Source: a virus. Taken from it: DNA of 34,486 bases. Position numbers and translations under genes: made by a program. This document shows positions 545 to 32,142 of the stretch, one piece after another (position 1 is the first letter of the stretch; each line of letters starts with the position of its first letter). The notes below the pieces were generated by a model. It did no database searches. It saw nothing but the letters and a program-made list of their open reading frames with translations, and was not told the DNA's origin. The DNA lies in the IMG/VR virus record IMGVR_UViG_3300003779_000001, positions 1-34,486 of that record; one strand, written 5' to 3'.

Positions 545-2209
545 TCAGCAATCTATCCGCCTCAAGACGACGGAGACAGGCAAGTCCAAGTCCAGGAGAT
601 CGCCGCCCTGCATCAGAAAAACGCTCTCCTGCCTAAAACAAAGCTTCTTGCCGTATTCCGCATTCCGCTGCTTTTCGATCGTCACCATAATTCCTCCTTC
701 CGCAGCTTCATCTTCCTGCTCTTCATCCGGCTCCTGGCTCACCATGCTCAGCACGCTGTCTGCCGCTCCCAACAAGGCGTTCGAGCCGCGCATCCCCCTA
801 GCAACATCCTTGCCGGAATGATGAATTAAAAGAACGGCACAACCCAACGCATTGCGTAGCAAGTCAACGCTTCTGACAACCGCACCAACGTCTTGCGCGC
901 TATTCTCGTCGCCGCTCATCGAGCGTGCCAGCGTGTCGAAAACGATGAGCGACAAGGACGACATTTCTTCCACAGCATTCACCGCCGCAACGAAATTCTC
1001 CATATCTTCTAGCGAAGAAAGATCGACGCCTGCCAATGAAAAATAAGCTCGTGAAGTCAGCGGCAGACCAGCATCCCAATGCCAGGTCGTTATGCGTCCC
1101 TTCAACCCGCCAAGTCCTTCGTTCATAACGTATAAAATATCAGACGCACCGGAAACCCCATGGCCCTGCCAGCTTACGCCATTGGCAATGCTCAGGACCA
1201 TGTCCAGCCCGAGAAAGGTCTTGCCGACCCCCGGCGGGCCATACAAGACCGCCAAGCCATGCCGCTCAATGATATTCGAGATAAGCCATTCCTGAGGCGG
1301 AAGAGCCATAAGCTCGCCGGCGGAAAGAAACCGCTTGAAACGAGTATCGGGACCTGGCGCCGATCGATGCCGGACGTATTCGTCGGATACGTGATCCCCC
1401 AGCGACGACCCGTCCAGTCCTTTTGGGAGCAGACGGTCGGGTTTACCACCAGGTCCCGATACCAATGGTTTAGCCGCATCAGCAATATCAAGTAAAGCGG
1501 TTCTCGTGCCACCATCGTCTATCCAGTCGGATGCGTCATACCCCCGCTGGCATTCGCCCGTCGAGGCCTCCGCAAGCGAGACCACCGTGATCGTTCGAGC
1601 AACGCCGTCCAGCTGCCGACACACGTCCTCGGCATGCTTCATGCCGGCTTCATCGTGATCAGGAAGAATAATCACATTGCGGTCGGCAAACCACTTGTTC
1701 AGCCGCGCCGACCAGTTGCTTGCACCACCATCGCTAGTTGTCGCCAAGACGCCTAAGCGGTTCAGCCGATCAGCGTCTTTCTCTCCCTCGACAATGAATA
1801 TCGGCTCGTCACTACGCTCGATGAGCTCGGGAAGCCGGTAGGGAACACGGGCGCGATTGCCGCGGCCCCACACCGTCTCTGCCCCGACCCGGTGCCGCAT
1901 TCTGAAGGTCTTGGGAATATACCGGACAACCTCATAGGCAACGGCACCGCTCTCGTCATGATATGGATAAACCGCTTCCGGTTCCATGCGGTCCGGCATC
2001 GAAACCCCTCCCTGGAAACGCCCGATGAAATCCTTGATGCCGCCGCCAACAGCGTTTTCGTGGTCGTACCATATGCCTCGGTCGAGATTAACGATCAGCG
2101 AACCATGATTGCCCCACCGCAACTCCGTCTTGCTCGAAAGTCGGCGGTTCGCTGGTCCCAGAATATCTGTGGCGATGCGCTCCAATTCTCCCCTAGAAGG
2201 GAATTTCAT
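545..2209 (-). CDS. Bifunctional DNA primase / replicative helicase (Toprim + RecA/DnaB-like P-loop ATPase)
   Basis: 574-aa ORF. The likely start is the ATG at 2209 (MKFPSRGELERIA). Toprim motifs are IFIVEGEKDADRL and ILPDHDEAG. The C-terminal ATPase has Walker A VLYGPPGVGKTF, Walker B-like LSLIVFDTL, and LLIHHSGKD. The architecture matches P4-alpha/RepA-type primase-helicases. Confidence 0.85.
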   Translation of the reverse strand: MKFPSRGELERIATDILGPANRRLSSKTELRWGNHGSLIVNLDRGIWYDHENAVGGGIKDFIGRFQGGVSMPDRMEPEAVYPYHDESGAVAYEVVRYIPKTFRMRHRVGAETVWGRGNRARVPYRLPELIERSDEPIFIVEGEKDADRLNRLGVLATTSDGGASNWSARLNKWFADRNVIILPDHDEAGMKHAEDVCRQLDGVARTITVVSLAEASTGECQRGYDASDWIDDGGTRTALLDIADAAKPLVSGPGGKPDRLLPKGLDGSSLGDHVSDEYVRHRSAPGPDTRFKRFLSAGELMALPPQEWLISNIIERHGLAVLYGPPGVGKTFLGLDMVLSIANGVSWQGHGVSGASDILYVMNEGLGGLKGRITTWHWDAGLPLTSRAYFSLAGVDLSSLEDMENFVAAVNAVEEMSSLSLIVFDTLARSMSGDENSAQDVGAVVRSVDLLRNALGCAVLLIHHSGKDVARGMRGSNALLGAADSVLSMVSQEPDEEQEDEAAEGGIMVTIEKQRNAEYGKKLCFRQESVFLMQGGDLLDLDLPVSVVLRRIDC

Positions 2210-2777
2210 CGTCCAGGCTTTGCGCACCCACCGTACCCACTGCGGGCGGCGCATGAACAGGCGGCGCAACGTTACCCGAGCTCTTGCCGGATTCCGGAAG
2301 CGTGGCGCGATCGACCGTCTTCACGAAAGCGAGCTGAGGAACGTTCAGCATCGTATTCCCGGCGGCGACATTCTCGACGCCGGTTATTTGAATGACCGGC
2401 AAGACGCCAGACTGGGCCGTCTTACTCACCACGGTCGGCCAAACTCGTGAAATGGCAAGCCGCGACGCCTTGCCCGTCGTTGACCAGGTGAGCCAGCCGT
2501 GCGCATTGTCATAGAGATCAATCGTAAAACCCCGACGCCAAGTCATTCCAGGAGTGTCTTCTGGTTTGGCGTCTTGACGCCCAACGACCGTATCCCATTG
2601 CCATTCCGTCCGGTTGCTACTTTGCGAGAAACATCCCCACCCCGTGCGCAAGGTGACAGGGTCGAGAACGAAGTGAACCAAGGTCACGACTTCCTTGTTC
2701 ACCACCCACTGATTGGCTACCGATCGGTAGTTAATAAAAGTCCTGTTTTCGTCTAAAATTTGAAGAGGGTCGTTCAT
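2193..2777 (-). CDS. SSB-like early protein with the bacterial SSB C-terminal tip motif (DDEIPF)
   Basis: 194 aa, with RBS GGAGAA 6 nt before the ATG at 2777. A Trp-rich N-terminal domain (WQWD, WRRGF, GWLTW) is followed by a Pro/Ala/Gly linker (SGNVAPPVHAPPAVGTVGAQ) and the terminal SLDDEIPF. It overlaps the primase-helicase start by 17 nt. The fold is not recognisably a canonical OB SSB. Confidence 0.6.
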   Translation of the reverse strand: MNDPLQILDENRTFINYRSVANQWVVNKEVVTLVHFVLDPVTLRTGWGCFSQSSNRTEWQWDTVVGRQDAKPEDTPGMTWRRGFTIDLYDNAHGWLTWSTTGKASRLAISRVWPTVVSKTAQSGVLPVIQITGVENVAAGNTMLNVPQLAFVKTVDRATLPESGKSSGNVAPPVHAPPAVGTVGAQSLDDEIPF

Positions 2778-13017: not shown

Positions 13018-13108
13018 GCTGATAATTTTGATAGTCCGGTTAAAATTTTCTATTGCTCCACCAAGCATGTTCATGCTAGTCTCAAATAAACCAATTAAAG
13101 AGGCGATC

Positions 13109-13798
13109 ATGGAAAAATTTGAAGGATACATCTCCTATCTTCGTGTTTCGACGCAACGTCAAGGTCAATCCGGCCTCGGGCTAGAGGCTCAACGCAAGAC
13201 AATCTGCGATTTTCTTGGCAACACAAAGCCGCTTGCGGAATTTGTTGAGGTGGAGTCGGGAAGAAAGGACGAAGATGAACGACCACAACTTGAAGCAGCT
13301 ATCATTCAATGTCAGAAATTGAATGCGATATTGGTCGTCGCAAAGCTTGATAGATTATCTCGGAGCTTGGCCTTCATCACGAGGCTAAAGAAGGCAGGCA
13401 TTCGATTTGTTGCCTGCGATATGCCAGACCTACAGGATCCGGCAACATCAGGTCTCTTTCTAAATTTCATGGGCGCGATTGCCGAGTTTGAAAGCAAGCA
13501 AAACTCCCAACGTGTCAAAGCGGCTCTAGCGGCCAAGAAAGCTCGTGGCGAAAAGAAAAGACTGCCTGAAAACTATAAAGAGCTTGCGGCGAAAGCCAAT
13601 GAAGCCTACCGAAAAAAAAACCACGAGTGGACGAAGTCCGTATGGGTGATCATCCAGGAACTGGAAGCCTATGGCTGTACGACGCTGAAAAAAATAGCCG
13701 AAGGCTTGGAGGCGCGCGGCGTCAAAACGTTCCGTGGGCATAGCAAATGGTCCGAATCGAGCGTGATGTCGGTTCGCAACCGAATGAGGGGCACCTGA
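13109..13798 (+). CDS. Small serine recombinase (resolvase/invertase catalytic domain + short recombinase-type C-terminal HTH region)
   Basis: ATG at 13109 with AAGAGG upstream. YISYLRVSTQRQGQSGLGLEAQR contains the catalytic Ser. Also LVVAKLDRLSRS and AEFES. The C-terminus TLKKIAEGLEARGVKTFRGHSKWSESSVMSVRNR resembles the recombinase domain of large serine recombinases. Confidence 0.85.
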   Translation: MEKFEGYISYLRVSTQRQGQSGLGLEAQRKTICDFLGNTKPLAEFVEVESGRKDEDERPQLEAAIIQCQKLNAILVVAKLDRLSRSLAFITRLKKAGIRFVACDMPDLQDPATSGLFLNFMGAIAEFESKQNSQRVKAALAAKKARGEKKRLPENYKELAAKANEAYRKKNHEWTKSVWVIIQELEAYGCTTLKKIAEGLEARGVKTFRGHSKWSESSVMSVRNRMRGT

Positions 13799-13805
13799 CC
13801 GACGC

Positions 13806-14075
13806 CTAGACGGTCATCGATGCCCGGAACCAAGTCAGGATAAGGCCGACACTAAGGGAGACGATGGCACCGATGATCAGCCAGATGAAACGCTCGAAAC
13901 GCCTTTCGATGGCTTCCCGTCGAATCAGGTTGTTTTCCACCAGCCGGAGACGATTGGAGATATCTCCAATCGTGTCCGTGTGGTTCTCGATCGCATCCGC
14001 AATATGGTTGAGCTTTTCCTCGATGCGGGCGACCGCGACAATGATGGAATCGAAATCGGCGTGCGGTTCTGCCAT
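13806..14075 (-). CDS. Tail-anchored coiled-coil membrane protein (XhlA-like architecture)
   Basis: 89 aa. The N-terminal heptad-like region is IEEKLNHIADAIENHTDTIGDISNRLRLVENNL, and there is a single C-terminal TM, FIWLIIGAIVSLSVGLILTWF. The functional call rests on architecture only. Confidence 0.55.
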   Translation of the reverse strand: MAEPHADFDSIIVAVARIEEKLNHIADAIENHTDTIGDISNRLRLVENNLIRREAIERRFERFIWLIIGAIVSLSVGLILTWFRASMTV

Positions 14076-14115
14076 AACAGGTCAACTCTAGACGTTCGAA
14101 AGCAAGAAAGTCAAG

Positions 14116-14430
14116 CTAGAGGGAATGACTACGTTCATAGGTCTTTTGAAGGTTTAGGAAATACTCGGCAGAAATCCCAAAAGCCTTGGAAAGCGATTGC
14201 GCCATGTCCGGGCTGATTTCTTGCTTTCCAGCAAGGATCATGTTCACTGCTCGCTCTGGAACGTCAAGGATATACGCAAGGTCCCGCTGCACCCATCCGC
14301 GTGCTTCCAATTCATCTCGAATGAACTCTCCTGGATGAGGGACTTCGTTCAACAGTGCTGCAATGCTCATCTTGTGTGCCTCGTCTGTATATATCCGTGT
14401 CAAATCGTCATTTGCGAACTTTATTTCCAT
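14116..14430 (-). CDS. higA: HigA-type XRE antitoxin-like protein carrying a ~20-aa HigB-like N-terminal stub
   Basis: PHPGEFIRDELEARGWVQRDLAYILDVPERAVNMILAGKQEISPDMAQSLSKAFGISAEYFLNLQKTYE is a classic HigA pattern. Residues 1-20 (MEIKFANDDLTRIYTDEAHK) look like the start of a HigB/RelE toxin. The internal ATG at 14370 has GAGG upstream and may be the real start. Confidence 0.8.
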   Translation of the reverse strand: MEIKFANDDLTRIYTDEAHKMSIAALLNEVPHPGEFIRDELEARGWVQRDLAYILDVPERAVNMILAGKQEISPDMAQSLSKAFGISAEYFLNLQKTYERSHSL

Positions 14431-14556: not shown

Positions 14557-17157
14557 TCAGCCCAACCTGATGAACGACAGACGCGTGGCGTAACGCTTGA
14601 TTTTGATGTGTTTTTTGCTCGTCGATATGATATCGCCTTCCGACAGGGTGACGATGCGCTTGAAGCTGACTCTGTCAGCTGCTGATGCCGGGGCTGACGC
14701 CGCCGCTTGAATAAGGGGGGTAACAAGGCTGACACGGGCGGTAACGAGTCCAGTAATATCGCCAGAATCGTCATCATCGTCATCATCATCGTCGTCATCG
14801 CCGCCACCCTTGATGGTGGCAAGCGTTGCCCATCCCTCGGCTTTGGCTACATTTCCCACAAGAAGCTCAAGACCGAATGCACTGAGCTTGTTCCCGGCGA
14901 CATCCAGGCAAACCTCGAGATCAATATGATAGAGCCCTGTTGACCTGCATATGAGCACGCTTGCATCGCTGTCCGTATCCAGCATGAAGTCCTCGCCGGA
15001 TGGAAGGGCCGGAGGCGCGACCTCTACCGTTCTGGCGGTCCCCCACCGCTCGCCGCTGCCTGAGAAATCCTTGAACAGGTCTTGCTTCCCCGCCGTTGCA
15101 AGATTCAATCCCGCCATCAGCACCGCGTTCGTATAGACCTTGTTGGTGAAAGTAATGACACCGTTGGCGCCGATCTCGAACCCGAGATCAACGCCGAGCT
15201 TGTCGGCGGTGACGCTGTCATCCGCCAGCTTGCTCGTATCGACGATGCCGTTGATGAGCGCGTTCCTGTTGACGCTGTCATCCGCCAGTTTCGCTTCGGT
15301 CACGGCATCGTCGGCGAGTTTCGCTCCGGTTACCTGTCCGTTCAGAATCTTGTCCGTTGTAACCGCGTTCTCGGCCAGCTTGATGGTATTGACGCTGTTG
15401 GCGGCGAGCTTCGGCTCGGTGACCGCGCCGTTGGCCAGCTTGGCGGTGGTGACATTGGTGTCCTTGATCTTGTCGGTCGCGACGACGTTACCGCCAAGCT
15501 TGTCTTCTCCCACGGCACCATCGGCCAGGAACCGCTCGACGATGACCCCGTCGGTGAGGACGGCGTCAGGGATTGCGCCAGCGGCAAATTTCTCAGCGGT
15601 CACCGATCCATTGGCCAACTTCTCGGTCGTGACCGCCTGGTCGTCCAGTGCGCGGGTCGTGACCGCGTCATTGGCGAGCTTCAGCTCGGTGACGGCGCCA
15701 TCACCGATGCTCGCCTGCGGGATGGCGTTCGGATCCAGCTTCTCTGCAGTCACGGCGTTGTCGGCGATCTTGTCCGTCGTGATGCTCAGTGGTCCGACGC
15801 CGAACTCGGAGAAGACGCTATGGCTAATCTTGGCGGCGGTCACCGCCCCGTCGGCAAGCTTTTCCTCGGTCACCGCCAAGTCATTGATCTTGAGCGTGGT
15901 AACCGCGCTTCGGCCGAGCTTCGGCGTGGTCACGGCGTCGTTCAGAATCTTGTTGGTCGTCACGGCATTCGGATAGATTTTCTCTTCGCGGACGCATCCG
16001 TCGGCCAGGCGATCGAACGTGATCGCGCCGTGGCCGATCTGATCCGCGAGGACGGCTCCGTCCGCAATCTTTTCGGTGATCACCGCATCGTCGGCCAGCT
16101 TGTTCCACGTCACAGCTTCGAGATCAAGCTTGACGGACGTGACCGCCCCGTCGTCGAGCTTGGACTCGGTAACCGCATTGGGAGCGATTTTCGGTGTGGT
16201 CACGGCGTCGGTGCCGAGCGCCCGCGTCGTGACCGCCTCGTGCGCAATCTTGGGCGCGGTCACGGCATCCGGACCCAGCTTCTCTTCCGTGACCACATGA
16301 TCGGTCAGCTTGATGGTGGTTAGGGAGTCGTCGGCGATCTTCGTCGTGCCGACGGCATTGTCCTTGATCTTGGCCGTTCCCACCGCGTCATTGGCCAGCT
16401 TCGGCTCGGTGACGGCGTCATCCGCCAGCTTCGAGGGCGTTACCGAGCCGCCGCCAAGGGCGCGCTCGGAGATCGCCCCGGCGTCCAGCTTCGGCTCGGT
16501 GACGTTCCGGTTCCTGATCGAGCGGGTGACGATCGCGTCCGAGGCGATCTTGGGCTCCGTCACAGCATGAGAAGCGATCTTGTCCTCGATGACGGAATCC
16601 GACTGAAGGGCCGCCGACGTGACGGACGACGTGGCCAAATTGCGGTCTCTGACCGCATTGGCGGCGATCGATTCATATGTGACGGCATTGTCGGCAAGCT
16701 TGGAGGCGGTAACGGCATCCTGCGCGATCTCCGAGGTGTCAACGGCATCCTCGGCAATGGCGTAAGCCGTGACCGCGTTCTCTCCGATCTTGTCAACGGT
16801 CACGCTATGGCGAGCCAGCTTGGGTTCGATCACTGCATCGTCGGCCAGCTTGGCCGCTGTGATGGTGCCGTCGGCCGGCTCGGTCGCCCTACCGACGTGC
16901 CCGAGGACACGGATGAAATCGATCGTATCCCCATCAACGAACGTACGAGCGATCGTCAGTTGATTCCCCGCCAGCCGCAATTCGGACGACGGGACTAGGC
17001 TTCCATTGACGCTGACGAGTAGGTTGTTGACGGAAGCCGGATTGAACTCGTCGCCGGCGAGAAGCAGGTCATACGTCTGCTTGCCGGCGACGACCGTAAC
17101 AGGGTCAAGATCGGCAAAGAGTCCGGTTGATGGAAGGTCGCGCCCGATTGTTGGCAT
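14557..17157 (-). CDS. Long tail fibre: N-terminal anchor domain, 56 x 10-aa repeat shaft, C1q/TNF-like C-terminal tip with a poly-Asp loop
   Basis: 866 aa, with AGGAGA 8 nt before the ATG at 17157. The N-terminal domain is similar to that of the 18271..18972 product. The tip pattern is STGLYHIDLEVCL..FGLELLVGN..VTLSEGDII..RLSFIRLG. Confidence 0.85.
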   Translation of the reverse strand: MPTIGRDLPSTGLFADLDPVTVVAGKQTYDLLLAGDEFNPASVNNLLVSVNGSLVPSSELRLAGNQLTIARTFVDGDTIDFIRVLGHVGRATEPADGTITAAKLADDAVIEPKLARHSVTVDKIGENAVTAYAIAEDAVDTSEIAQDAVTASKLADNAVTYESIAANAVRDRNLATSSVTSAALQSDSVIEDKIASHAVTEPKIASDAIVTRSIRNRNVTEPKLDAGAISERALGGGSVTPSKLADDAVTEPKLANDAVGTAKIKDNAVGTTKIADDSLTTIKLTDHVVTEEKLGPDAVTAPKIAHEAVTTRALGTDAVTTPKIAPNAVTESKLDDGAVTSVKLDLEAVTWNKLADDAVITEKIADGAVLADQIGHGAITFDRLADGCVREEKIYPNAVTTNKILNDAVTTPKLGRSAVTTLKINDLAVTEEKLADGAVTAAKISHSVFSEFGVGPLSITTDKIADNAVTAEKLDPNAIPQASIGDGAVTELKLANDAVTTRALDDQAVTTEKLANGSVTAEKFAAGAIPDAVLTDGVIVERFLADGAVGEDKLGGNVVATDKIKDTNVTTAKLANGAVTEPKLAANSVNTIKLAENAVTTDKILNGQVTGAKLADDAVTEAKLADDSVNRNALINGIVDTSKLADDSVTADKLGVDLGFEIGANGVITFTNKVYTNAVLMAGLNLATAGKQDLFKDFSGSGERWGTARTVEVAPPALPSGEDFMLDTDSDASVLICRSTGLYHIDLEVCLDVAGNKLSAFGLELLVGNVAKAEGWATLATIKGGGDDDDDDDDDDDSGDITGLVTARVSLVTPLIQAAASAPASAADRVSFKRIVTLSEGDIISTSKKHIKIKRYATRLSFIRLG
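14767..14799 (-). repeat. (GAY)11 tract encoding 11 consecutive Asp in the fibre tip
   Basis: The minus strand reads gat gac gac gat gat gat gac gat gat gac gat, in the context GGG-D11-SGD. Confidence 0.95.
15190..16869 (-). repeat. 56 consecutive in-register decapeptide repeats (x-A-V-T-x-x-K-[LI]-A-[DN]) in the fibre shaft
   Basis: Residues 97-656 parse into 56 ten-residue units without a single indel (GTITAAKLAD ... DSVTADKLGV). The periodic stop-free DNA explains the long antisense ORFs here. Confidence 0.9.
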
Positions 17158-20182: not shown

Positions 20183-22621
20183 CTATTGCTCTCCAAGTGC
20201 CGCGGAAATATCCGGCGCACGTTCAGGAACGAGAACGCCAGGACGCCACCAATGTTCCTGATTATAATCTTTTAAATATCGTCTTTCCATGTTCCTGAAA
20301 CGTTTCCGCGCATTAGGGTCAGCCATCAGCCGCAGCCGGTCTAAAATGCCACGCTCAATCGCAAGCCTCAGGTACCATGTCGAAGCTCCGGGGACATGGC
20401 GACCAAAGAAGTCCACCGTTTCAAGAGCGGCATTCGTCTTCTCTCTCCGCGCAACCTCCATCGCATTGCCAAGCGTCAACCGGCGAAGATCATTTAAAAA
20501 CTGGATCCTGGGGCCCGCAATCGTCTCCGTCAGACCACCGCCAAACCTGTTAACGTCATTGAATAGAAAGTCCCCGTAGATTCCAAGCCCGCCTCCGGTC
20601 AACAACGCTTTGCCCCAAAACTCAGAAGTGTCCATGGCAACAGGGTCGCGCCCTTTCGTTATCTCGCGCAACTGGATGGCAAGAGCGGCCATTGCCGTGC
20701 TCGTGATGAGCAAGTCTCCGGCAATAGACAATTTACGCCCCATGCTCGGCTGATGAAGGGCCGCTCGAATATGGTTCAAATAAACAGTAACAGGGAAGTT
20801 TTTGAACATCGCAAATGATCTTGCGATCTCACCTGTTACCGTTCCGGGCCTCGTGCCCCCGACAAGAGCCGCGCGTCCACGCGTGGACGCTACCGGCACA
20901 GCCAAATTCGTCATGCCCTGGACCATTTCGAGAACCTTGAACGCCAGGTCGCGGTTCTCTTCAAAGATTTCGTCAGGACGAAGAAACTTCGCCCCCTTGA
21001 ACTCATATTGCCTGTATTTTCGAAGATCGGCCCAATCCACGTCCGAAATTCCATACCGCGTCAATGTCTCTCTAAAATCGGGATTGAGTGACTTGTAGGA
21101 TTTTTTCGTATTGTCGGCGATGAATCCCATGAACTCCATGCCGAAGGCCCATCGTCCTGCCTGGGTAAATGGCGATAGCAAGGAAATGTTCATAGCTGCA
21201 TGCGATATCGCCTCGGACATTTTCCCGCCCAATACGTCGCGCGCATATCGAGCCTGTCCATAAGCGATGGAAGACCAGTTCTCAGCAATAAGCCCCTGAC
21301 GTATGACCTGCGATTTCGTCGCCTTGCTGGCGGTCAACATCCGGAACGCCTGCTTGAATGATGACTGGAATACGTCCATCCCCGCCATACGCTTGGTGAT
21401 GCGCGTAAAATTGGGGTCGGTCATGACCGCAAGGATGGACGTTGACCCAAGATAGGCCGCTGTCAGGAGATTTCCCAAGCCCGCAAAAGACCTAGCGACA
21501 GTCTCATTAACGGGCATATGAGAGGTTCCTGTGATAAGGTTGTACATGTCATCGAACGTCGCAAGCGAAGCCCGAAGCTTCGCCATCCGCTTGCCGGTGC
21601 CCGCCGCAGCGTCCGCCTCCGCGGCGGCCTTCTGCGCCTGAGTCTTCAGGAACTGTACCGTGGTGTTTGGATTAGGCCCGAGCACAGACAGCAGGGCTAT
21701 GTCTCTCGACATACTGTCAACATAGTTCATCATGATGGAAAAGGGCTCGCCGGAACCAAATCGCTCGCTGTACTCCATCCACTCTTGCGCACCCCGGAAG
21801 TGAAAGAACCGACTGTCCTGACGACGGCGCGCAAGCGACCTCCCCGGCCCCGCCACGGCCGTCTCCTTGACCTTCGAAAAGCCCTCGGTGGCGATCGTCT
21901 CCCAAACTTCTACAAGAATCTCTTCCAGCCGTTCCGCTGTCAATGGCTCGCCGGTTTCATAATCTTTCATTTTGTTACGCGCCAAGCGCGGGTGAATAAA
22001 ACTGTACCACTCCGCGAAACCGGCTTCGCGAACAGCGGCACTGTCATGCATTTGGGGCATGCCCCAGTCGTTGCGTTCCGGGATATCGCCACCCAATGAA
22101 TTGAATTCCTTGCGCAGAAATTCCTCTGCCTCGGTCCACCCTTTCGCCATATCCTTGGCAAAAGCATTACCCGACGACTCGCCGAAAACTTCCCTCACCA
22201 TGTCCATGGCCGACACGGCGGCCCGTCTCGAGACTCTGCCTAGAACGGCGGTTTTCCGCAGATTGGAAATTGTCGTCTCCATCATGGCGTGCGCCATACC
22301 GCGCATGGCGTTCTGCCGGGCAACGACATTGGTGTAAGGAGCACGCCCGGAGCCATCGCGTTCCAAAAGAGCGATAAGCGCTTCCCCGATATCATCACCC
22401 TCGAAGCGGCTCAAATCGTCAAAGGCACGCTTCTGTGCTTGATGTTGCAAGTTCAGCCGCCTGACCCGCTGCTCGACTTCACGCTCCAACGCGACGTAGG
22501 CGGCGGACCCCGGCTTCGGTTCGTTTTCAAACGCTGTCGCAAGCCGGCGCACCCGAGCCGCCTGCTCTTCCGTAATAACGCCTTCAGCAAGAGCGGCATC
22601 AATACACTCATTGAACGGCAT
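20183..22621 (-). CDS. Large internal-virion/ejection-region protein (812 aa)
   Basis: The call rests on synteny (the gp15/gp16 position of T7-like modules). The protein is largely helical with hydrophobic stretches, and I recognise no lytic transglycosylase motif. Confidence 0.6.
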   Translation of the reverse strand: MPFNECIDAALAEGVITEEQAARVRRLATAFENEPKPGSAAYVALEREVEQRVRRLNLQHQAQKRAFDDLSRFEGDDIGEALIALLERDGSGRAPYTNVVARQNAMRGMAHAMMETTISNLRKTAVLGRVSRRAAVSAMDMVREVFGESSGNAFAKDMAKGWTEAEEFLRKEFNSLGGDIPERNDWGMPQMHDSAAVREAGFAEWYSFIHPRLARNKMKDYETGEPLTAERLEEILVEVWETIATEGFSKVKETAVAGPGRSLARRRQDSRFFHFRGAQEWMEYSERFGSGEPFSIMMNYVDSMSRDIALLSVLGPNPNTTVQFLKTQAQKAAAEADAAAGTGKRMAKLRASLATFDDMYNLITGTSHMPVNETVARSFAGLGNLLTAAYLGSTSILAVMTDPNFTRITKRMAGMDVFQSSFKQAFRMLTASKATKSQVIRQGLIAENWSSIAYGQARYARDVLGGKMSEAISHAAMNISLLSPFTQAGRWAFGMEFMGFIADNTKKSYKSLNPDFRETLTRYGISDVDWADLRKYRQYEFKGAKFLRPDEIFEENRDLAFKVLEMVQGMTNLAVPVASTRGRAALVGGTRPGTVTGEIARSFAMFKNFPVTVYLNHIRAALHQPSMGRKLSIAGDLLITSTAMAALAIQLREITKGRDPVAMDTSEFWGKALLTGGGLGIYGDFLFNDVNRFGGGLTETIAGPRIQFLNDLRRLTLGNAMEVARREKTNAALETVDFFGRHVPGASTWYLRLAIERGILDRLRLMADPNARKRFRNMERRYLKDYNQEHWWRPGVLVPERAPDISAALGEQ

Positions 22622-23427
22622 CAGAATCCATAGACCTCTTTGCCGGCGGTTTTTGCCAAAGCGCTGTTCCAGTAAAACGATTCATAGTCGGGAACCAAAA
22701 GCCCAACCAACTCATTACGATCTTTCGACAAGGCCAGGAAGCGCCCAAGCCGCAATGCGATTTGACGCAAGCTCTCCAAATGACACCGTTTCTCTCCCGA
22801 TGACAATTCCAGGGACACGGATGCACACCCGTCTTTCTTCCTGGCAGCAGACTTTACGTAGACGAATACCATTGCATAGTTATCATAGGCTTTTGCATAA
22901 ACCGCTCCCTGGCGAGCGTGGGACGTTCTTATGGAAGATGGAAGTCGATCGGTGGTTTTCAGATCGACGATCACTCCAAGGTCGTCAAAACGCCAATCCG
23001 TATAACCGATAACGGGGACGGGCACGTCATCGAGATTGATCTCTACACGGTCTTGTACGCCGCTCGGCTTGCCGTACTGGCTCAAGACTTCAAAGCCATT
23101 ATAGACATAACCGGAAATCCTCTTCCGTTCCCTTTCGGCAGCCGTGGAATAATCTTCACCGTCGAACGCATACTCCAATACCGAGTTATCAAAGATCGTT
23201 TCAGCGGTGCGAACACAAATATCTTTATGGGCGAAACCATACGTCGGTCTTTGCAATCCAATATTAATACCTTGCTCTACCGCCGTCCCACGAATTGCCG
23301 ATACCCCGGGCGGGAATTTATGGCCCAACAGCTTATTCATCGCCCAAAAGGCTGGCTCCGTAGCCCACAAATTAAGCGAAGACGGCGAAAGATGATCAAG
23401 TCCATGAGCCTCGAAAGGATTGGTCAC
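22621..23427 (-). CDS. PD-(D/E)XK (RecB/Cas4-like, no Cys cluster) nuclease inside the ejection-protein operon
   Basis: VIGYTDWRFDDLGVIVDLKTT gives D...D-x-K, and ARQGAVYAKAY gives QxxxY. The N-terminus is LSPSSLNLWATEPAFW. I prefer GTG 23427 (AAGGAG 8 nt upstream), which overlaps the upstream stop as GTGA. The stop overlaps the next ATG as TGATG. Confidence 0.7.
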   Translation of the reverse strand: MTNPFEAHGLDHLSPSSLNLWATEPAFWAMNKLLGHKFPPGVSAIRGTAVEQGINIGLQRPTYGFAHKDICVRTAETIFDNSVLEYAFDGEDYSTAAERERKRISGYVYNGFEVLSQYGKPSGVQDRVEINLDDVPVPVIGYTDWRFDDLGVIVDLKTTDRLPSSIRTSHARQGAVYAKAYDNYAMVFVYVKSAARKKDGCASVSLELSSGEKRCHLESLRQIALRLGRFLALSKDRNELVGLLVPDYESFYWNSALAKTAGKEVYGF

Positions 23428-24578
23428 AAGAGACACTCCTTCATTCGTTCAAGCATTATACGGTCCTGGGCCACGATTGTGCGCGCCTCGCCAACAGAAA
23501 TTTCCCGGCTGATCGGCTGATTATCGACGATCTCTTCGATAAGGAAAATTTCATCATCTAATGCCGTTCCAAAAAGATCGTCCGTCTCCGGCAACCGCCC
23601 GGTAACAGGGACTTCACCTGTTTCCATCAAAGGGGCGTCATGTCCTGGAACGCTGCCTCGTTCGAAGGAATCCGAAGCCTCCGCCACTAGGGCGGAGGCT
23701 TCGGCGGCGTCCACATCCGGGGGCGTAGCCTGGCGCAATTCGTCAAAGTCTTCTAGGACGTCATCAACCAAATCCGCCTCCTTGGCCTTACCGCCACGCC
23801 CCCGATAGGCGCGAAGCCCTTCTCTTATCAAACCAACCCCCTCGCCAGCCGCATGTAGCACTGGCGGGAAAGCCGCGCCGAGCGCGGTTGCCGCAGCGAC
23901 ATTCTTGAAGAAATCCGCATACGAATAATCCAGCCCCAGCTTTTGATACCAATCCATGATCCCTGATTGCAGGGAGGCTTCAATCCCGCCACTGATCACC
24001 GCTTCACGCAGCGCGGCAAGCCCGAGTCCACGCGCTCCCACTCCCATGCTCATGCCAGAGACCATCACGGGACCAAGCATGAGCGCTTGCTCAAAAAATG
24101 CATCATCAGCAATGATTCCGCCCATGCTCCCAACAAAACCGCCGAGCGTTCCAAGCATGTCCTCACGCGCAGCCGCTTCCTGGCCCTTTTGAATCGCTTC
24201 CAAAGCCGTCGTCTTTATTCGCTCATCCAGACTTTCCGGGGTCATGTCCGTGAACTCAGGATAGATATCCTCATTTTCATTGACGTGATCCAACAGCTTG
24301 TTCAAATAATGCCCGCGCATTTTTTCGTTATGCCCTAAACTGTCAGACCCGCCGAAGAAACGCCCCGGATTGACAAACGTCACATCCTCCCGCTCCTGGA
24401 TTGCATCAATGACCGGCGTGAGCTCTTGCGTCATCAAGAGCGTATACGCGTCGATGTTCAGCCCCCTAGTTTGAGCGGAATATGCTTCGGACATAGCATC
24501 GAAAAACCCGATGTCCTCACCGCCATATCGTAGAGGCGTGTCACCAAAACCGCTATTGTTGTATCGTTCAAAAAACAC
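23424..24578 (-). CDS. Internal-virion-region protein (384 aa) with a Gly/Met-rich hydrophobic core
   Basis: GTG start. Contains TLGGFVGSMGGIIADDAFFEQALMLGPVMVSGMSMGVGARGLGLAAL. Placement is by synteny only. Confidence 0.55.
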   Translation of the reverse strand: MFFERYNNSGFGDTPLRYGGEDIGFFDAMSEAYSAQTRGLNIDAYTLLMTQELTPVIDAIQEREDVTFVNPGRFFGGSDSLGHNEKMRGHYLNKLLDHVNENEDIYPEFTDMTPESLDERIKTTALEAIQKGQEAAAREDMLGTLGGFVGSMGGIIADDAFFEQALMLGPVMVSGMSMGVGARGLGLAALREAVISGGIEASLQSGIMDWYQKLGLDYSYADFFKNVAAATALGAAFPPVLHAAGEGVGLIREGLRAYRGRGGKAKEADLVDDVLEDFDELRQATPPDVDAAEASALVAEASDSFERGSVPGHDAPLMETGEVPVTGRLPETDDLFGTALDDEIFLIEEIVDNQPISREISVGEARTIVAQDRIMLERMKECLL

Positions 24579-24585
24579 GATTCTG

Positions 24586-27171
24586 TTACTCAGAAAGCTT
24601 AAGATGAAGACGCGGTATCTCCCTGGAAACGCGCGTCAAATCAATAAGATAGGGCCGCCCGTTGGGAGCGAACAAAATCTCGTCGCGGTACATGAGCTTA
24701 TAGATACCATCGCCTACGCTAATAAGTTGTGATTTTTGGATGGTCTTGAGAGAAACCCGCTGCTCATTCACGACTCCAATCGGCAGCCGATCATAGCTCA
24801 CGAATTCGCCGCTTTCTTCCTGGGCGACCGCAAGCGGCAGAATGTCTTCGGCGGCCTCCATGTCGTCAAAGATATCTTCAATGCCGTCCTGAGAAACGTT
24901 TACAGGCAGCAGAATATTTTTTCCATTGTACTCGACAAAGCCCCCGAACCGCTCTCCGTCAATCTCGCGCATACCAGCTGCATGTTGAAGGGCGAGCTCG
25001 TAAGCGCTCGCATCGAAATAACCGGAGGCGCTTCCGCCCTGGCCCAAATAGATAAGATCGCCAACCGACTTAATCCGATGCACAACGTCGATGACAGCAC
25101 GAGACCCGGTAAGTCCGGACAGCACCCTCATTCGTCTATCCCGCATGTCGAAGAACTCGCCTAGAGCACGGTCTTCTATCCCCGCCCGAACGGCGCGGCC
25201 CTTCAGGGCCGCGTCAACGACAGGCAAGGGGGCATCGAGGGCCATCAAGCCTCCTATATGCGCCAGTTCCGGCGCTCCGGCCCCCAATTGTTCCATAACA
25301 ATCATGGCGTCTTTTCCAAACCCGGAAACAATCTGGCCCAGCGCTATCGCCTGCTCGCCAATCGGCATGCTTTCCAAGGCAGCCGACAAAGCAAGAGCCT
25401 CGTTCCCGGTCAGGAATTTCGGGGGGACCGTATAATGCGCCGACATTTTGTCCGCGTCCTGCCGACGGCGCAACAGTCTCTGCTCGTCTTGTGCCAGAAT
25501 GGCGGGAACGATATCACGGTCCAGAGTGATCACCCCCGCCTCATCCGCCCAGGACAGCGGGTCCTGCTTCAACGCCGTTTCCATGGCCGACAACCGTTTA
25601 TCGAAAGCGTCGAGAAACTCGCCGCCGCCCCGTTTACGTAAGGCCGCCACCTTCGCTTCCAAAACCAGGCTATTGTCGTCAGCAATATCATTGAAAAGGT
25701 CTCGCATCGACAGCAAGCGAGACGCATCTTCTCGAACCGGTTGAATCAGCGCCCCTGGCACGCCGGCGAACTCCAAGGCGCTTACGGTATCGAGAACCTC
25801 GGAAATCTCGGCGTCGCCAACACGACGAAACGCCTTAACGTCGCCTTGAAGTCGCTCCATTGCATCAATCGCGGGCGATATGAACTTTTTCCACCTGCCC
25901 TTTTCCGTCGCAATCGATTCCAAATGCCGCTTGATATCCGTAAGCCTCATAATGTCTTCGGGAGTAACATTCTCGCCCAACCCGATTTCGGCGGCGAGAC
26001 GATCGCGCTCCGCGAGAAGGCCTTCCAACGGCAGGTCCCGAATTGCCCGCATGTACAAGATGCGCCGCTCCGCGGCTTCTACGCGCTCACCCACTGCAGC
26101 AAGTTGAGCGCGTGAAGCCCCGCGCTCCCGCAGAGCTCCCAATTCGGCCCGCGCCTCAGCAAGCAGCTTTGTATCCGGAATGCCGCCGGCGGAAACGACC
26201 GACAGGATTTCGTCGTCGATAGACTCCCGCAACCCTCGGACTTCCGCCGTTACGGCGCTCGCCTGACTGGCCACCCTGCGGCGAAGGGCCTGAGCCAGAG
26301 ACGTGGTGTCCCGCAAGGACAGGTCTTCGAGAGGTTCCGCTTCGAGCTTCTCGATGAGTTTTTGTCTCCCGGAAACGGACTCGGCCCGCTCGAACTCCCC
26401 CATGACCCTGGCGATGGCCGCACGCCTCTTCGACGAAGATATCTCCCGCGCGATTGCATCACTGTCATAGCCTTGGCCACGCAGCCAGTCAGCCATGCCA
26501 TCTATTTCTTGCTTTATCAGCCCCTTGACATTACTGACCGGCGATGCGGCCAGGTTCTCAAGACCAATATTCAACGCATCTAGTCTAAGCGCCGCCTCGG
26601 CACGCTTTCGGGCGCGCGTTTCTTTCAGACTAAAATCCGAAAAACGCACGAATTGAGCGTTTCGATACTCATCCAGCTTGACTGCGAGCTCCCTAGCGGT
26701 CGCAGGATTCAGCAACTCAAGCGTTTCGGAGAAACCGCCAGTGACCATATCGAGCCGCTCGCCAAGCGCCGCAGGGCCTTCCTTATTATCAAGGGCTTGC
26801 AGGTATTGCAGCCCCATCTCTTTCTTGGCTTCGACCTCGACCTCGACAGCCAGCTGATTGGTGGCAGCCTGCCACGCCGCCGCCTCTTCCGGGCCCAGCA
26901 TCGCGGGGTCACGCCCGCGCAACCCTTCCAACACGCCACGAGGGTCCCCGCCGCCACGGATTGACCCATGAATTTTACCTCGCCTTTCTTCCTCCCGAGC
27001 GGCGTAGCCGACGAGATTCTCGATCATGCCGACCGCCGTGCCGGCAAGCCGAGCCGTGGCATGGCCCGACCGGGCCGCCTCACGATGCCCGACAGGATCA
27101 AACCTTGGCAGACGACCAGGCCCCACGGACTGGACGAACCTCGAAGATGGCCGTGGATACCGGTCAGCCAT
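24586..27171 (-). CDS. Large helical internal-virion/ejection protein (861 aa, gp15-position)
   Basis: The ATG at 27171 overlaps the upstream stop (ATGGCTGA). The composition is long and alpha-helical, rich in Ala/Glu/Arg/Leu. Confidence 0.6.
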   Translation of the reverse strand: MADRYPRPSSRFVQSVGPGRLPRFDPVGHREAARSGHATARLAGTAVGMIENLVGYAAREEERRGKIHGSIRGGGDPRGVLEGLRGRDPAMLGPEEAAAWQAATNQLAVEVEVEAKKEMGLQYLQALDNKEGPAALGERLDMVTGGFSETLELLNPATARELAVKLDEYRNAQFVRFSDFSLKETRARKRAEAALRLDALNIGLENLAASPVSNVKGLIKQEIDGMADWLRGQGYDSDAIAREISSSKRRAAIARVMGEFERAESVSGRQKLIEKLEAEPLEDLSLRDTTSLAQALRRRVASQASAVTAEVRGLRESIDDEILSVVSAGGIPDTKLLAEARAELGALRERGASRAQLAAVGERVEAAERRILYMRAIRDLPLEGLLAERDRLAAEIGLGENVTPEDIMRLTDIKRHLESIATEKGRWKKFISPAIDAMERLQGDVKAFRRVGDAEISEVLDTVSALEFAGVPGALIQPVREDASRLLSMRDLFNDIADDNSLVLEAKVAALRKRGGGEFLDAFDKRLSAMETALKQDPLSWADEAGVITLDRDIVPAILAQDEQRLLRRRQDADKMSAHYTVPPKFLTGNEALALSAALESMPIGEQAIALGQIVSGFGKDAMIVMEQLGAGAPELAHIGGLMALDAPLPVVDAALKGRAVRAGIEDRALGEFFDMRDRRMRVLSGLTGSRAVIDVVHRIKSVGDLIYLGQGGSASGYFDASAYELALQHAAGMREIDGERFGGFVEYNGKNILLPVNVSQDGIEDIFDDMEAAEDILPLAVAQEESGEFVSYDRLPIGVVNEQRVSLKTIQKSQLISVGDGIYKLMYRDEILFAPNGRPYLIDLTRVSREIPRLHLKLSE

Positions 27172-27703
27172 CTTTATTCCCGCCACCACGGCTCAGCGAG
27201 TATCGACCGACGGCGCTGGCAACATCGAGACCGGCGTTCAATGCATTGACGTATCCCTGGTGCCGGGCATTCCTTCCGGCCAGTTCATATTCCTGCTGCT
27301 GCAACGCCCCGCCGGTCTCCAACAACTGCGCCTCCAATTCAAGCATTCGTCGATTCTGCACAGTCACGTCGAAATCTCGTACTCCACGCCCACGGATAAG
27401 TTCGGCCGTGTTCAAGATGGAACCCGAAAATGGATTTATCGCGCCGGCGGCTGCACGGGCATTGAGTGTCGCTATATCGCTGGCCGTTTTTTCCAAAATG
27501 GCAATGCCTTGCCGCTTATGGTTTAGCAACTCGGTACGCGTGCGAAGAACGTCCAGACGTGTGTTCAGGGCAGCCTGCTTCGCTTGAAGCTGATAGGCTC
27601 GCTGACTTGCCTTGCCTGCCGAAAGGCTTGCCGAGGCCCCCGCCAGACCACCAATGACTTGTACTCCCAGAAGGAGCGTGGAAGCTGCGGCGAGACTAAC
27701 CAC
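27164..27703 (-). CDS. Small internal-virion protein with an N-terminal TM segment (gp13/14-position)
   Basis: GTG start with GAGAGG upstream. The N-terminus is VSLAAASTLLLGVQVIGGLAGASASL, followed by coiled coil. Confidence 0.6.
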   Translation of the reverse strand: MVSLAAASTLLLGVQVIGGLAGASASLSAGKASQRAYQLQAKQAALNTRLDVLRTRTELLNHKRQGIAILEKTASDIATLNARAAAGAINPFSGSILNTAELIRGRGVRDFDVTVQNRRMLELEAQLLETGGALQQQEYELAGRNARHQGYVNALNAGLDVASAVGRYSLSRGGGNKDG

Positions 27704-27722: not shown

Positions 27723-30700
27723 TTACCGGCCTAGACTGATTTTATAGTCCAACGCGGTCAATGTCATGGGAAGAGGAACGGTTTGCGTAATCTTTATAAT
27801 GCCATAACTATCGTATCCAAAAAACGGCCCTTCGGTCTTAACGCCAGTGAACTTCTGAACCGGACCGTCAATGCCGGACACGCTGCCGGTCCGGAGGCTG
27901 TCAAACGGCAGCTCAACGTCGTTGATGGTCAGAGATTGCGTATCGACGACACGGGCGTTAACCTCGACCACGCGCTTCTTGATCCCCATGGTCGAAGGGT
28001 CATGCACCTGCGGTTCGACCGGAAGAGTTTCCAGGTGAACATCGAAGTTCCACCCGTACTCTATGGGATGACCAGGGGGCGCATATCCAGGAAGAATCCA
28101 AGCCTCCGGGTTTATCTCACTCATGCTCTGTACCTCAGCCATGGAAAAGGCGCGATCATAAAACCGAATATCGGAAATGTTGCCAACCACTTTGTGAACT
28201 TGCGGTCTGCCGAGGTCGTCCGCCAGGGGTCCTGAATAAATGTCCGGCAGGTTTTCCGGATCCCCACCGACAAAGACCTTCGCGCCGGGAGCAGGCGTTT
28301 GACTGGAAAAATCGGCGCTGCCGAATGTCGTTGAAAGGGTCAAATGGCCCGGCTCGTCCGCGATCCCACCGGCTACCTCTGGTGTATCAGCCACTTTAAC
28401 CCAAAGATAGCAATCACCATCCCGGTCCCACGTAAAGGCCAAATAATAAGCGACGTTCTCCTCCAAAACCGTTTCATTGCGAGCAGAGACAGCGGCTTGA
28501 CCGACGCCATCGATATATATGGCGGCTCTTACCTCATCAGGATTATTCTCGGAATGTTGCAAACGTATTTCCCAGCGATACCCCAGAACTTTGGTACCGC
28601 TGGGACGATTGTGCATTTGAATGAGGACCTGACGCCATTTCGGATTGATCGACACAGGATCAATCCACTCGGCCGTGTCCGTATCATCATCGTCGTCGTC
28701 ATCATCATCGTCGTCGTCATCAGAGTCCTCAACCCAGGGAAGACGAACGAACTTACATATGACAGTAAAATCCTGGTTAGGACCGTGATCGAGGATATGC
28801 ATCGCATCCTCGATCTCAAATGCGGTATCTCCCCTTTTATATTGATAACTTCTGCTGCGAATGGGCGTATCATAGAAAGCGTACGTAGCGCCTATGTTCT
28901 CGATGGTGCGCACACGATCATTGACGATAAAACTCGCTTTAGTGTTTTGCAGCCGTTCGGGAATAGGCGTTAGTCCGACTCTATACTCCTCCGGATCGGT
29001 CACCTTTCCAGCCAAATCCAGCCGATAGTCCTTCTTGAACACCTCCACGGTCCATTGATATGCGTTGATCCCTCCGCCGACGGCATATTTAGGACGCTTA
29101 ACAAGAACATAGACATTATCGTCAACCACACTGATCATCTTGAACTCGCCACGCGTCGTCCACCGTGTCGCTCCGACGAGATTCTGGGATTTCTGCAAGG
29201 TGAAAACGGCGAGCGTGCCATCTCCATTGACAATCATCACACGCTCGCCCTCTCCCTCGAAAGAGGGAAGGATGGCCAGCGTAACCGGGTCATTTATCAT
29301 ATGCGTCGCCAGGAGCGAAAGAGGATGGCTCAGATACGCGTTATTCTCGTCTGAATAAATGAGCTCACGAAGCGCCTTACCGCCACGCTGAATGAACAGC
29401 GTGCTAACGCCGATGCCAGCAACAGGAGTATGCTGATCCTTGCCGGCATGGCCGGCTGCACGGATTGCAATATTGCTCGGCGTGATCGCCTCGAACTGCC
29501 CCGTCTGCGGAATGTAAAATTCCCCGCCAGTCGTAAATATCTGAAGATTTCCTCCCGAATAAAGATCGACAACATCATTCAATGTTGTGGAAACAATCTC
29601 CACTACAATGCCGTCGTCATCTAAACCGCCGCCAAGACCGAAATCAGTGAAGTCTCCTATCCGAGACCCAAAGATTATCGATGGCTTGCTCCTGGTTCCT
29701 CCAAGCCACAGCCTGCCCTCATGAAAACATACGGAGCGCGGCCACTGTGGACCCGTGGCGGAATCACCGCCGGTCAGAACGGGCACAGCCCTCTGAATAA
29801 GCTTTTTCCAATCCTGATATGAATATTCACCCTGTGTAACAGCATCCACAACCTCGGCTAGGCAGGTATTACCATCGACCTTCTGAGTAATTCTAAGCGA
29901 CCCACCGTCAGTCAAAACGATGCGGCTGCCAATAAGCGTGGCCGCGTCTTCATCAAAAGCAACAAGGTCCGCTGGCTCGCGATCAATAGTCTCAACCTTG
30001 ATAATCTTACCCGGCTGACCATCAAGGTGAGCTCTAAAAAAACCGTCAACATCAGTACGCTCTAACTTAAGAGTCGCATTGGGTTCGAGCTCGTCCTCCG
30101 GAAAATGCTCTCTAACGACGGGCGTAATCGAAAAGTCGATCGTATCGACAGCCCATCTATTATGCCTATTGCCACGTACGATCCTGATGGGGTGCATATC
30201 CGCATGAACAATAATGAGCGTATCGGCCGCCTGAGCGAATTTCATATCTTCAAGCTGGTCAACAGATAGACCCTCGATTTCCAGATAAGCAGTGCCTACA
30301 TCAACAACAGCAGAGTCATCGGGGTCATCGACATCACTCATGAAAACCAAGTTGGGCACATGCTCATCTTCCTCCACGCCAGTCGCTTGAATGGCTGGGC
30401 GGAAAACGTACATGCCGACCTTCTTGGCATCGACGCCAACGGCGTTAGCAGCGCCAATCGGAGCGAAGACGAGCATGTAATGGTCTTCAACGTTAAAATC
30501 GAACGGGACAAAGCGAGGCGTGAAGGTATCGAAACGTGTCGATCCATCAGACAGAGTGTAGATATATCGCAACCCAGGGCGGCGCTTCACGCCGCCCTGG
30601 GGAATGACGACGACGTTCTCAGCCCTGGCAAGACCGGAAAAGTATTGCTTCAGGTCAATCCGGCTTGTCGCCCTGGGATCAACCTCACCAACGGTGAAAT

Positions 30701-31397: not shown

Positions 31398-31796
31398 TTA
31401 CGGCAAACGGAATAAGTCGGTTAACGTCACCTTATCCCTCTTGCCGGAATAGTCGACGAGCGGGTCATCGGCACCGTCTTTTATATACTCGCTGACGTAG
31501 TAAAGAACCACGTGCGGAGCAGACGGATCAATGGAGGTCGATAAAATAAGGTCTCCCCTCCTGACGGGAGTATTCGGTATGCTAAGGGCGAAAGATGGGA
31601 TATCGGCGTGCCGGACAACACCGCCCCTCCAAAAAGGAGCCGTATAAAAAAATAAATAAGCGGCCCGCTTGTGCGATGTATTGCTCGGATCGGCCTCATG
31701 GGCCATGCGATGAAGACCCCGAATATCGAACAGGAGAAACCCGTTACCGGTGTCGTACCACCTGCCGTTCGAGTATTCCCAGAGTGCCGTTGCCAC
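31398..31796 (-). CDS. Small virion-module protein, paralog 3 of 3 (132 aa, N-terminally extended)
   Basis: GTG start. It shares FDI.GL....E..PSNTSH.R....F.Y and NTPVRRGDLILST..VVLYYVSEY with the two upstream genes. Confidence 0.6.
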   Translation of the reverse strand: MATALWEYSNGRWYDTGNGFLLFDIRGLHRMAHEADPSNTSHKRAAYLFFYTAPFWRGGVVRHADIPSFALSIPNTPVRRGDLILSTSIDPSAPHVVLYYVSEYIKDGADDPLVDYSGKRDKVTLTDLFRLP

Positions 31797-31826
31797 AGCT
31801 TATTACCCCCGCACAGCTACATAACG

Positions 31827-32135: not shown

Positions 32136-32142
32136 GGTCCGA

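Follow-up and report, generated by a model that had tools for sequence, protein, structure and literature searches.

The virus genome IMGVR_UViG_3300003779_000001 raises the question of why a gene for a DNA nuclease lies among its internal virion protein (IVP), or ejection-protein, genes. We analysed the whole 34,486-nt stretch, positions 1 to 34,486 of that record, which we call the window; the gene in question lies on the minus strand at 22621..23427. A first-pass annotation, made from the letters alone, had called the product a RecB/Cas4-like PD-(D/E)XK nuclease and had concluded from its overlaps with both flanking genes that it is made stoichiometrically with the ejection proteins, and had raised the idea that it might be packaged or co-injected with the DNA. 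Our analysis bears out the enzyme assignment. As to function, we lean slightly towards a different account, in which the nuclease is a replication/recombination enzyme of the cytoplasm that has been displaced into the late operon and is made late.

The nuclease and its gene

The gene and the codons that matter for its assignment are as follows.

22621..23427, minus strand: gene for the 268-aa RecB/Cas4/RecE-like PD-(D/E)XK nuclease (profiles, homologues, alignment, AlphaFold2, Foldseek)
23436..23440, minus strand: Shine-Dalgarno-like AGGAG within the 3' end of the upstream 384-aa gene (read from the sequence)
22998-22996, minus strand: codon of catalytic residue D144
22965-22963, minus strand: codon of catalytic residue D155
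22959-22957, minus strand: codon of catalytic residue K157
22911-22909, minus strand: codon of Q173 of the QxxxY motif
22899-22897, minus strand: codon of Y177 of the QxxxY motif

The motifs named in the first-pass annotation are all present: GYTD with D144, VDLKT with D155-L-K157, and QGAVY running from Q173 to Y177. E51, D144, D155, K157, Q173 and Y177 are invariant in alignments of 20 and then 82 family members and are kept in the window nuclease, which carries both the catalytic D...(D/E)xK and the QxxxY of the RecB family. Profile searches gave nuclease-type matches: Pfam PF12705 (PDDEXK_1) scored 21.9 bits against a gathering cut-off of 22.0, phrog_10230 (no assigned function) matched at E=4.6e-24 and the exonuclease family phrog_69 at 2e-5. 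A large protein database held 298 homologues, with E-values down to 1e-88; most are 258-260 aa long and 48-56% identical, and many have a precomputed PF12705 match. An AlphaFold2 model built on the family alignment reached a pLDDT score (predicted local distance difference test) of 91.3 and has the core alpha-beta-beta-beta-alpha-beta fold. Foldseek matched it with probability 1.0 to PDB entries for Cas4-family ACE1, the nuclease domains of AdnAB and AddB, RecE and MGME1; the putative exonuclease 3l0a and Cas4 SSO0001 are further best neighbours, and the top viral fold neighbours are phage PD-(D/E)XK nucleases with template-modelling (TM) scores up to 0.80. Taken as predictions from alignment and model, these results confirm the product as a PD-(D/E)XK nuclease, RecB/Cas4/RecE-like, with intact catalytic residues; sequence and modelled fold together put the assignment well beyond chance, and the protein is apparently an active enzyme. 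It belongs to a known class, the phage PD-(D/E)XK exonucleases, in an atypical genomic position.

Among characterised proteins, the best structural matches are Cas4/ACE1 and the AddB/AdnAB/RecB domains (9iab, 9np6, 6ppr, 4ic1 and 3u44; probability 1.0, TM 0.31-0.56), Cas4 entry 4ic1 being the weakest of these at TM 0.31-0.33; the QxxxY motif is shared with the RecB family. ACE1 is an Argonaute-associated Cas4-like protein. Unlike these proteins, the window nuclease is a stand-alone protein of 268 aa with no CRISPR, Argonaute or helicase association, and phage genes, not CRISPR-cas adaptation genes, adjoin it in the window and in about 80 related loci. It also lacks the Cas4-type four-Cys Fe-S cluster, as had been noted before, because it has three cysteines only (71, 201 and 215), one of which is conserved in the family. 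RecE/lambda Exo-type recombination exonucleases resemble it in catalytic fold and motifs, and RecE (3h4r) is among the top Foldseek matches; unlike in fold, there is no detectable similarity in sequence, the nuclease-family profile having no match among PDB sequences.

The gene runs from a GTG start (23427-23425) to a TGA stop (22623-22621). Its reading frame stays open back to a GTG at 23436, and we place the start at GTG 23427 because AGGAG (23440-23436) lies 8 nt before it and homologues begin at the equivalent residue. Both overlaps described in the first-pass annotation are in the sequence: the start shares GTGA with the stop codon of the upstream 384-aa gene (TGA 23426-23424), and the stop shares TGATG with the start of the downstream 812-aa gene (ATG 22621-22619). 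The nuclease is nonetheless a separate open reading frame (ORF) with its own ribosome-binding site, beginning after the native C-terminus and stop codon of its upstream neighbour. No promoter or terminator of its own, of the kind that flanks a moron gene, was found, both gene ends overlapping the neighbours, and promoter- and terminator-like sites were no more frequent than in shuffled sequence. A tblastn search for a nuclease remnant in the rest of the window, which took in the 279-nt gap upstream of the replication gene orf194, returned noise only (E>0.6).

We also considered a frameshift or readthrough product fusing the 384-aa protein to the nuclease and rejected it: CTCTTGTGA contains no slippery sequence, and the native C-terminal motif of its own family closes the 384-aa protein.

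Family context and the insertion junction

An alignment-based scan of IMG/VR located homologues of the nuclease, 39-57% identical to it, at 80 loci, and metagenome contigs added two further contexts, one of them within a 2-Mb bacterial chromosome; single-protein IMG/VR scans with the nuclease or with the 384-aa protein had returned nothing. At none of these loci does the gene lie near homologues of the window's structural proteins. Its usual place is at the head of an early replication/recombination module of temperate phages, in which an HTH/CI-like repressor is followed by the nuclease, a protein of about 210 aa resembling single-stranded DNA-binding protein (SSB), and a primase/helicase. 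The ORF immediately downstream belongs to one ~210-aa family in 61 of 77 cases, and a primase/helicase related to that of the window comes next at 41 of the 80 loci. When 150 ORFs flanking the nuclease at 28 non-redundant loci were scanned with PHROG, primase/helicase (20 loci) and repressors were the commonest neighbours, and no structural family was among the top 25. The GenBank phage C72C1 encodes a homologue of 26% identity, with a Sak-like annealase and an SSB following directly downstream. That nucleases of this type normally sit in replication modules, as the first-pass annotation had supposed, held in all of the roughly 80 loci examined. One homologue of the nuclease comes from a Rhodospirillaceae bacterium.

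The two other members of this module are present in the window, about 20 kb from the nuclease.

2193..2777, minus strand: orf194, 194-aa SSB-like protein with the tail ...SLDDEIPF (neighbour-family hidden Markov model, HMM, 1.5e-14)
545..2269, minus strand: 574-aa primase/helicase, third member of the canonical module (homology to module members in other phages)

It was the HMM of the ~210-aa neighbour family that matched orf194 (2777..2193, E=1.5e-14). Members of this partner family have an N-terminal domain of about 150 aa, a proline/alanine-rich linker and an invariant C-terminal phenylalanine, and the ...SLDDEIPF ending of orf194 resembles the acidic tip of bacterial SSB. Neither hhalign against T7 gp2.5 nor a comparison with PDB sequences yielded a match for the family, orf194 had no Pfam or PHROG match, and its single-sequence AlphaFold2 model (pLDDT 35) was unusable; a protein-database search made separately with orf194 and with the 384-aa protein returned the query alone. 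As in RecE/lambda Exo-type systems, the relatives of the window nuclease sit directly upstream of a single-strand-binding-type protein in an early operon, so that an exonuclease adjoining its SSB or annealase partner is found in the relatives and not in the window. Unlike in those systems, the window gene lies in a late operon far from its partner, whose family is uncharacterised.

The two genes that meet the nuclease at the junction belong to the virion.

20183..22621, minus strand: 812-aa IVP-D homologue of the T7 gp16/epsilon15 gp17/VP5 gp18 family (phrog_684, tblastn)
23424..24578, minus strand: 384-aa internal virion 'slot' protein, epsilon15 gp16/VP5 gp17-like, minimal form (homologues, synteny)

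The 812-aa protein matches phrog_684 (virion structural protein) at E=4e-154 and, by tblastn, VP5 gp18 (YP_024981) and phiV10p20, the equivalent of epsilon15 gp17; VP5 gp18 and phiV10p20/epsilon15 gp17 are listed as IVP-D, the T7 gp16 homologue (Hardies et al., PMC4819975). We used this epsilon15/VP5 link, the matches obtained giving no connection to the ejection proteins of Pa223. The place of the 384-aa protein is occupied in VP5 by gp17 (390 aa), and epsilon15 gp15 and gp16 are the IVP-C candidates (PMC4819975). The first-pass annotation had set the nuclease between two large proteins in the gp15/gp16 positions. Its place among the IVP genes, which follow tail tubular protein B and precede the fibres, stands, as does the 812-aa IVP-D on one side; the upstream neighbour is just 384 aa long.

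Backbone relatives were collected by scanning with the 812-aa protein, which gave 77 IMG/VR loci, 10 genome loci and 80 metagenome loci, and in 132 of these the sequence reaches 1.5 kb or more upstream of where IVP-D starts. Not one of the 132 has the nuclease there (tblastn and family HMM). Gene order at 60 IMG/VR loci shows a single slot protein that ends against IVP-D or within about 50 nt of its estimated start. In the closest relative (L113, IVP-D 64% identical), the slot protein has 399 aa and finishes in ...gtgtgcgcaTAATGggc, and a TAATG overlap joins its stop to the start of IVP-D. Three near-complete sister genomes were pieced together from locus pairs (L355+L086, L353+L087 and L341+L118), primase/helicase and TerL scans having given the second halves; IMGVR_UViG_3300030101_002651, for example, measures 34,395 nt, of which about 90% was seen. 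They are 66-71% identical to the window in TerL, 67-68% in portal and 54-62% in IVP-D. No nuclease was found in the roughly 90% of each that was examined, and orf194 and primase/helicase are present. The synteny in related podoviruses to which the first-pass annotation had looked therefore does not extend to the nuclease.

All sister genes follow on one strand: serine recombinase, orf194, primase/helicase, repO, TerS, TerL, orf166, portal, scaffold, capsid, tail A, tail B, IVPs and fibres. Against these collinear genomes, the window has its scaffold-to-fibre and replication blocks on the minus strand and TerS-TerL-portal on the plus strand, and the order of repO, orf194 and primase/helicase differs. 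Gene position is a weaker guide to function here because the window genome is so heavily rearranged relative to its sisters.

The absence of the nuclease from all 132 relatives and from what was seen of the three sisters is our reason for reading it as a lineage-specific acquisition: on this comparison, it is an accessory gene gained by this lineage and not an ancestral gene moved within the genome. The nucleases closest to that of the window (55-57%) come from phages in which identity to the window's primase/helicase is only 25-28%, whereas the phages closest in primase/helicase have nucleases that are 40-45% identical. The gene has a GC content of 0.50, and 0.53 at third codon positions, against genome means of 0.545 and 0.607, about 1.2 standard deviations below, as for other accessory genes. 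These reciprocal distances and the base composition agree with a foreign origin.

We propose that one lineage took up the gene by horizontal transfer and that it was inserted precisely where two ejection-protein genes meet, a junction that borders a recombination hot spot where relatives exchange cargo domains. Such a hot spot is also a permissive place for illegitimate insertion. Because the essential downstream IVP-D needs translational coupling, an insertion that the phage survived had to keep the start and stop overlaps. Overlaps of this kind are to be expected of any viable insertion upstream of IVP-D and give no argument for co-assembly; nor do they prove the stoichiometric expression that the first-pass annotation had drawn from them.

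Restriction to one lineage and an exact intergenic junction would also suit a selfish, homing-type endonuclease gene that inserted itself between conserved structural genes, for which the homing endonuclease noted among the IVP genes of Pf-WMP3 would be a precedent (PMC4819975). We consider this origin very improbable. The family is tied to an SSB-like protein and a primase/helicase in about 80 loci and was never found scattered among structural genes, its fold neighbours are end-processing exonucleases (RecE, AddB/AdnAB, Cas4 and MGME1) and not homing enzymes, and no DNA-recognition domain has been added. The homing endonuclease of Pf-WMP3 and the non-structural IVP-A/gp13 of T7 are of interest here in another way, as IVP-operon genes that do not encode virion components (PMC4819975). 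The window nuclease resembles them as a candidate non-virion gene within an IVP operon and differs in its family, which is otherwise a member of replication modules.

Cytoplasmic enzyme or virion passenger

Homologues of the 384-aa slot protein range from 399 to 1244 aa; they have in common an N-terminal region of about 330 aa and a C-terminal motif of about 20 aa (AQDxxMLERxKxC), and differ in the middle, where several carry an enzymatic domain.

L086, 5866-8004: slot homologue with a Zeta-toxin kinase domain (1.9e-21), from the closest group
L125, 6205-8004: slot homologue with an SLT transglycosylase domain
L132, 4528-8004: slot homologue with a GNAT domain
L135, 5371-7839: slot homologue with a phage tail lysozyme domain, found also in L142
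L150, 4846-8004: slot homologue with a RelA/SpoT domain

Zeta-toxin-like kinases and RelA/SpoT domains also occur in virion-associated phage polyvalent proteins (PMC5512222). From its sequences, the slot family looks like a polymorphic carrier of injected effectors, of which the window and VP5 proteins are the minimal, cargo-free form. That many uncultivated podoviruses, with hosts that are probably Alphaproteobacteria and marine bacteria, have such a polymorphic carrier for toxin-like and muralytic domains may be the more general finding of this work. The window nuclease lies downstream of the AQDxxMLERxKxC motif, outside the internal cargo position.

In the account towards which we lean, the nuclease would be made from the late operon as a free, soluble cytoplasmic protein, and DNA ends would be the substrate of its metal-dependent exonuclease activity, of RecB/RecE/Cas4 type. 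By resecting them it would serve recombination-dependent replication, the formation of concatemers or the processing of ends, and would plausibly cooperate with the phage's own SSB-like orf194, whose family is the conserved neighbour elsewhere, and the protein would be absent from virions. Its length and termini are like those of its early-module homologues, with no added segment that might tether it to a virion. If this account is right, the window offers a clean, datable case of a foreign gene spliced into a tightly coupled structural operon, in which insertion beside a domain-exchange hot spot left translation of the essential downstream gene unbroken.

Several points weigh against this account. 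The other products of the operon are internal to the virion and the nuclease gene is embedded among theirs, with an overlap at either end, and the slot family next door carries enzymatic cargo (Zeta toxin, RelA/SpoT, GNAT, SLT and lysozyme); that the locus is a place encoding injected activities is the strongest circumstantial point for packaging. Cooperation with the SSB-like protein is not required, since the sisters manage with that protein alone. The window nuclease also has the longest root-to-tip distance in a tree of 82 members (0.326, against 0.251 +/- 0.045) and has changes in 10 out of the 72 columns that are highly conserved, where other members have 2.3 +/- 3.0; three of its changes, H150L, R187V and P193S, replace residues that are invariant in all 81 relatives. 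Behind this divergence may lie a new role, a lost partner interface or relaxed constraint. Variants give no reading of selection, because the one other contig found (ENA, 34,528 nt) shows 100% identity throughout the 20.8 kb compared.

The same locus and the same divergence would fit a nuclease that is co-assembled with the IVPs, ejected with the DNA and active at entry, either on host or defence nucleic acids or on genome ends resected for annealing or circularisation with the SSB-like protein. The gene lies between IVP genes and is coupled on both sides, the adjoining slot protein carries enzymatic domains in relatives, and IVPs are known to host domains destined for the cytoplasm (PMC4819975). 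Enzymatic effectors that are packaged in virions can be encoded among late genes (PMC5512222). Members of the nuclease family are usually among the first genes of the early rightward operon past the repressor, which fits a very early need, and the faster divergence with three lost invariant residues could mark a new role. We judge such delivery possible and the less likely reading, indeed unlikely. The nuclease has an ORF distinct from that of the slot protein, located beyond the latter's native C-terminus and away from the internal site of cargo; it has gained no targeting or tethering segment, its arrangement is a singleton among 132 relatives, and the need for IVP-D to stay translated accounts for the coupling. 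If packaged, a DNase that resects ends would moreover adjoin the phage's own genome ends. Among phage polyvalent proteins, the ParB-like DNase is neither accompanied nor replaced by other DNase folds (PMC5512222).

Known enzymatic IVPs and polyvalent proteins make the comparison more precise. Enzymatic domains in IVPs include the transglycosylase of T7 gp16, the N4 virion RNA polymerase (vRNAP) in an IVP-D homologue and the methylase of H66 gp60 (PMC4819975), and ParB-like domains are the only DNase domains reported in phage polyvalent proteins, PD-(D/E)XK DNases not being among them (PMC5512222). The window nuclease is like these proteins in sharing their operon and in having relatives of its neighbour that bear cargo domains. 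In those proteins the activities are covalently joined, whereas the nuclease is a separate protein: it is fused to no virion-targeting or structural domain, it has no IVP homology by Pfam and PHROG profiles, and its position is not conserved in related phages. It might still travel as a non-covalent passenger of the ejection complex, entering with the DNA and acting before phage gene expression, for example by resecting terminally redundant ends for annealing-driven circularisation or by destroying host or defence DNA; this more specific version we regard as a little less probable again.

With packaging, the proteins that phages inject would gain a new class of enzyme, the effectors of the cargo-carrying IVP locus would come to include free-standing proteins, and the question would arise how a DNase stays harmless beside the packaged genome. 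To our knowledge, though no systematic search was made, this would be the first PD-(D/E)XK DNase delivered by a podovirus virion.

Two further readings keep the nuclease in the cytoplasm and use the divergence differently. In one, it is a late enzyme with a role outside recombination, such as breaking down the DNA of the host or of competitors for nucleotides, clearing branched or unpackaged DNA ahead of packaging, or acting against a DNA-based defence. The late operon, the intact catalytic residues and the absence from sisters, as would be expected of an accessory fitness gene, all suit this reading, and the three lost invariant, non-catalytic residues may alter substrate or partner specificity. 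The linkage of the family to an SSB-like protein and a primase/helicase points instead to replication and recombination, and we hold a role of this other kind to be distinctly unlikely. In the second reading, the gene is a passenger, relaxed or decaying, that has been tolerated because its insertion kept IVP-D expressed. The longest terminal branch in the family, the 10 changes in 72 conserved columns with three at invariant positions, and the singleton arrangement are what such a gene might show. Set against this are a full-length ORF that keeps all catalytic and 62 of 72 conserved residues despite about 43% divergence from its nearest relatives, a confident AlphaFold2 model, and the compactness of a 34.5-kb phage genome; decay seems to us quite improbable.

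Other features of the genome

The late operon is encoded on the minus strand. Its first part comprises a scaffold protein of the T7 capsid-assembly family, the major capsid protein and three small paralogues; then come tail tubular A-like and B-like proteins and proteins of 179, 867 and 384 aa, and finally the nuclease, the 812-aa protein, a 287-aa protein and the fibres. Two members of the IVP block upstream of the slot protein complete it.

24586..27189, minus strand: 867-aa large internal virion protein in the epsilon15 gp15 position, IVP-C-like (weak phrog_992 match; synteny with sisters and phiV10)
27164..27703, minus strand: 179-aa protein that comes straight after tail tubular protein B, the position of IVP-B (position and synteny alone)

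The 179-aa protein had no profile match in Pfam or PHROG, and 20 kb of the window had no megablast match among GenBank phages. A 166-aa protein encoded at 7583-8083 on the plus strand matches phrog_308 'internal virion protein' (1.9e-8). It adjoins TerL in the window and its closest sisters; in distant relatives (L112, L116, L150 and others), its homologue opens the IVP operon, immediately behind tail tubular B.

IVP-D relatives in bacterial genomes (L163-L172) are all from Alphaproteobacteria, in the genera Sphingobium, Geminicoccus, Polymorphobacter, Devosia, Aestuariivirga and Sandarakinorhabdus, where they are prophage-like. Because these genome relatives are all alphaproteobacterial and one nuclease homologue is from Rhodospirillaceae, the host of the phage is probably an alphaproteobacterium.

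The first-pass annotation had also listed a separate Holliday-junction resolvase. The only 'Resolvase' match is a serine site-specific recombinase at 13028-13798, which is invertase-like, and the ORFs tested included no Holliday-junction resolvase, RusA- or RuvC-like. On the minus strand at 13806-14430, between this recombinase and the fibre genes, are a 104-aa helix-turn-helix (HTH) protein resembling HigA and plasmid antitoxins (phrog_1381, 2e-16) and then an 89-aa ORF that had no match; the two may form an accessory pair of the toxin-antitoxin kind.

The three small paralogues of the late operon (132, 102 and 115 aa) lie in tandem at 31398-32490 on the minus strand, between the capsid and tail tubular A genes. 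Motifs that they have in common include PSNTSH.R and TPVRRGD.ILS, and they have no family match and no homologue in the sister phages. Two structural proteins contain unbroken poly-aspartate runs written in mixed GAT and GAC codons: 11 Asp at residues 787-797 of the 866-aa fibre (14767-14799, minus strand) and 13 Asp at residues 670-682 of the 1001-aa tail tubular B-like protein (28683-28721, minus strand).

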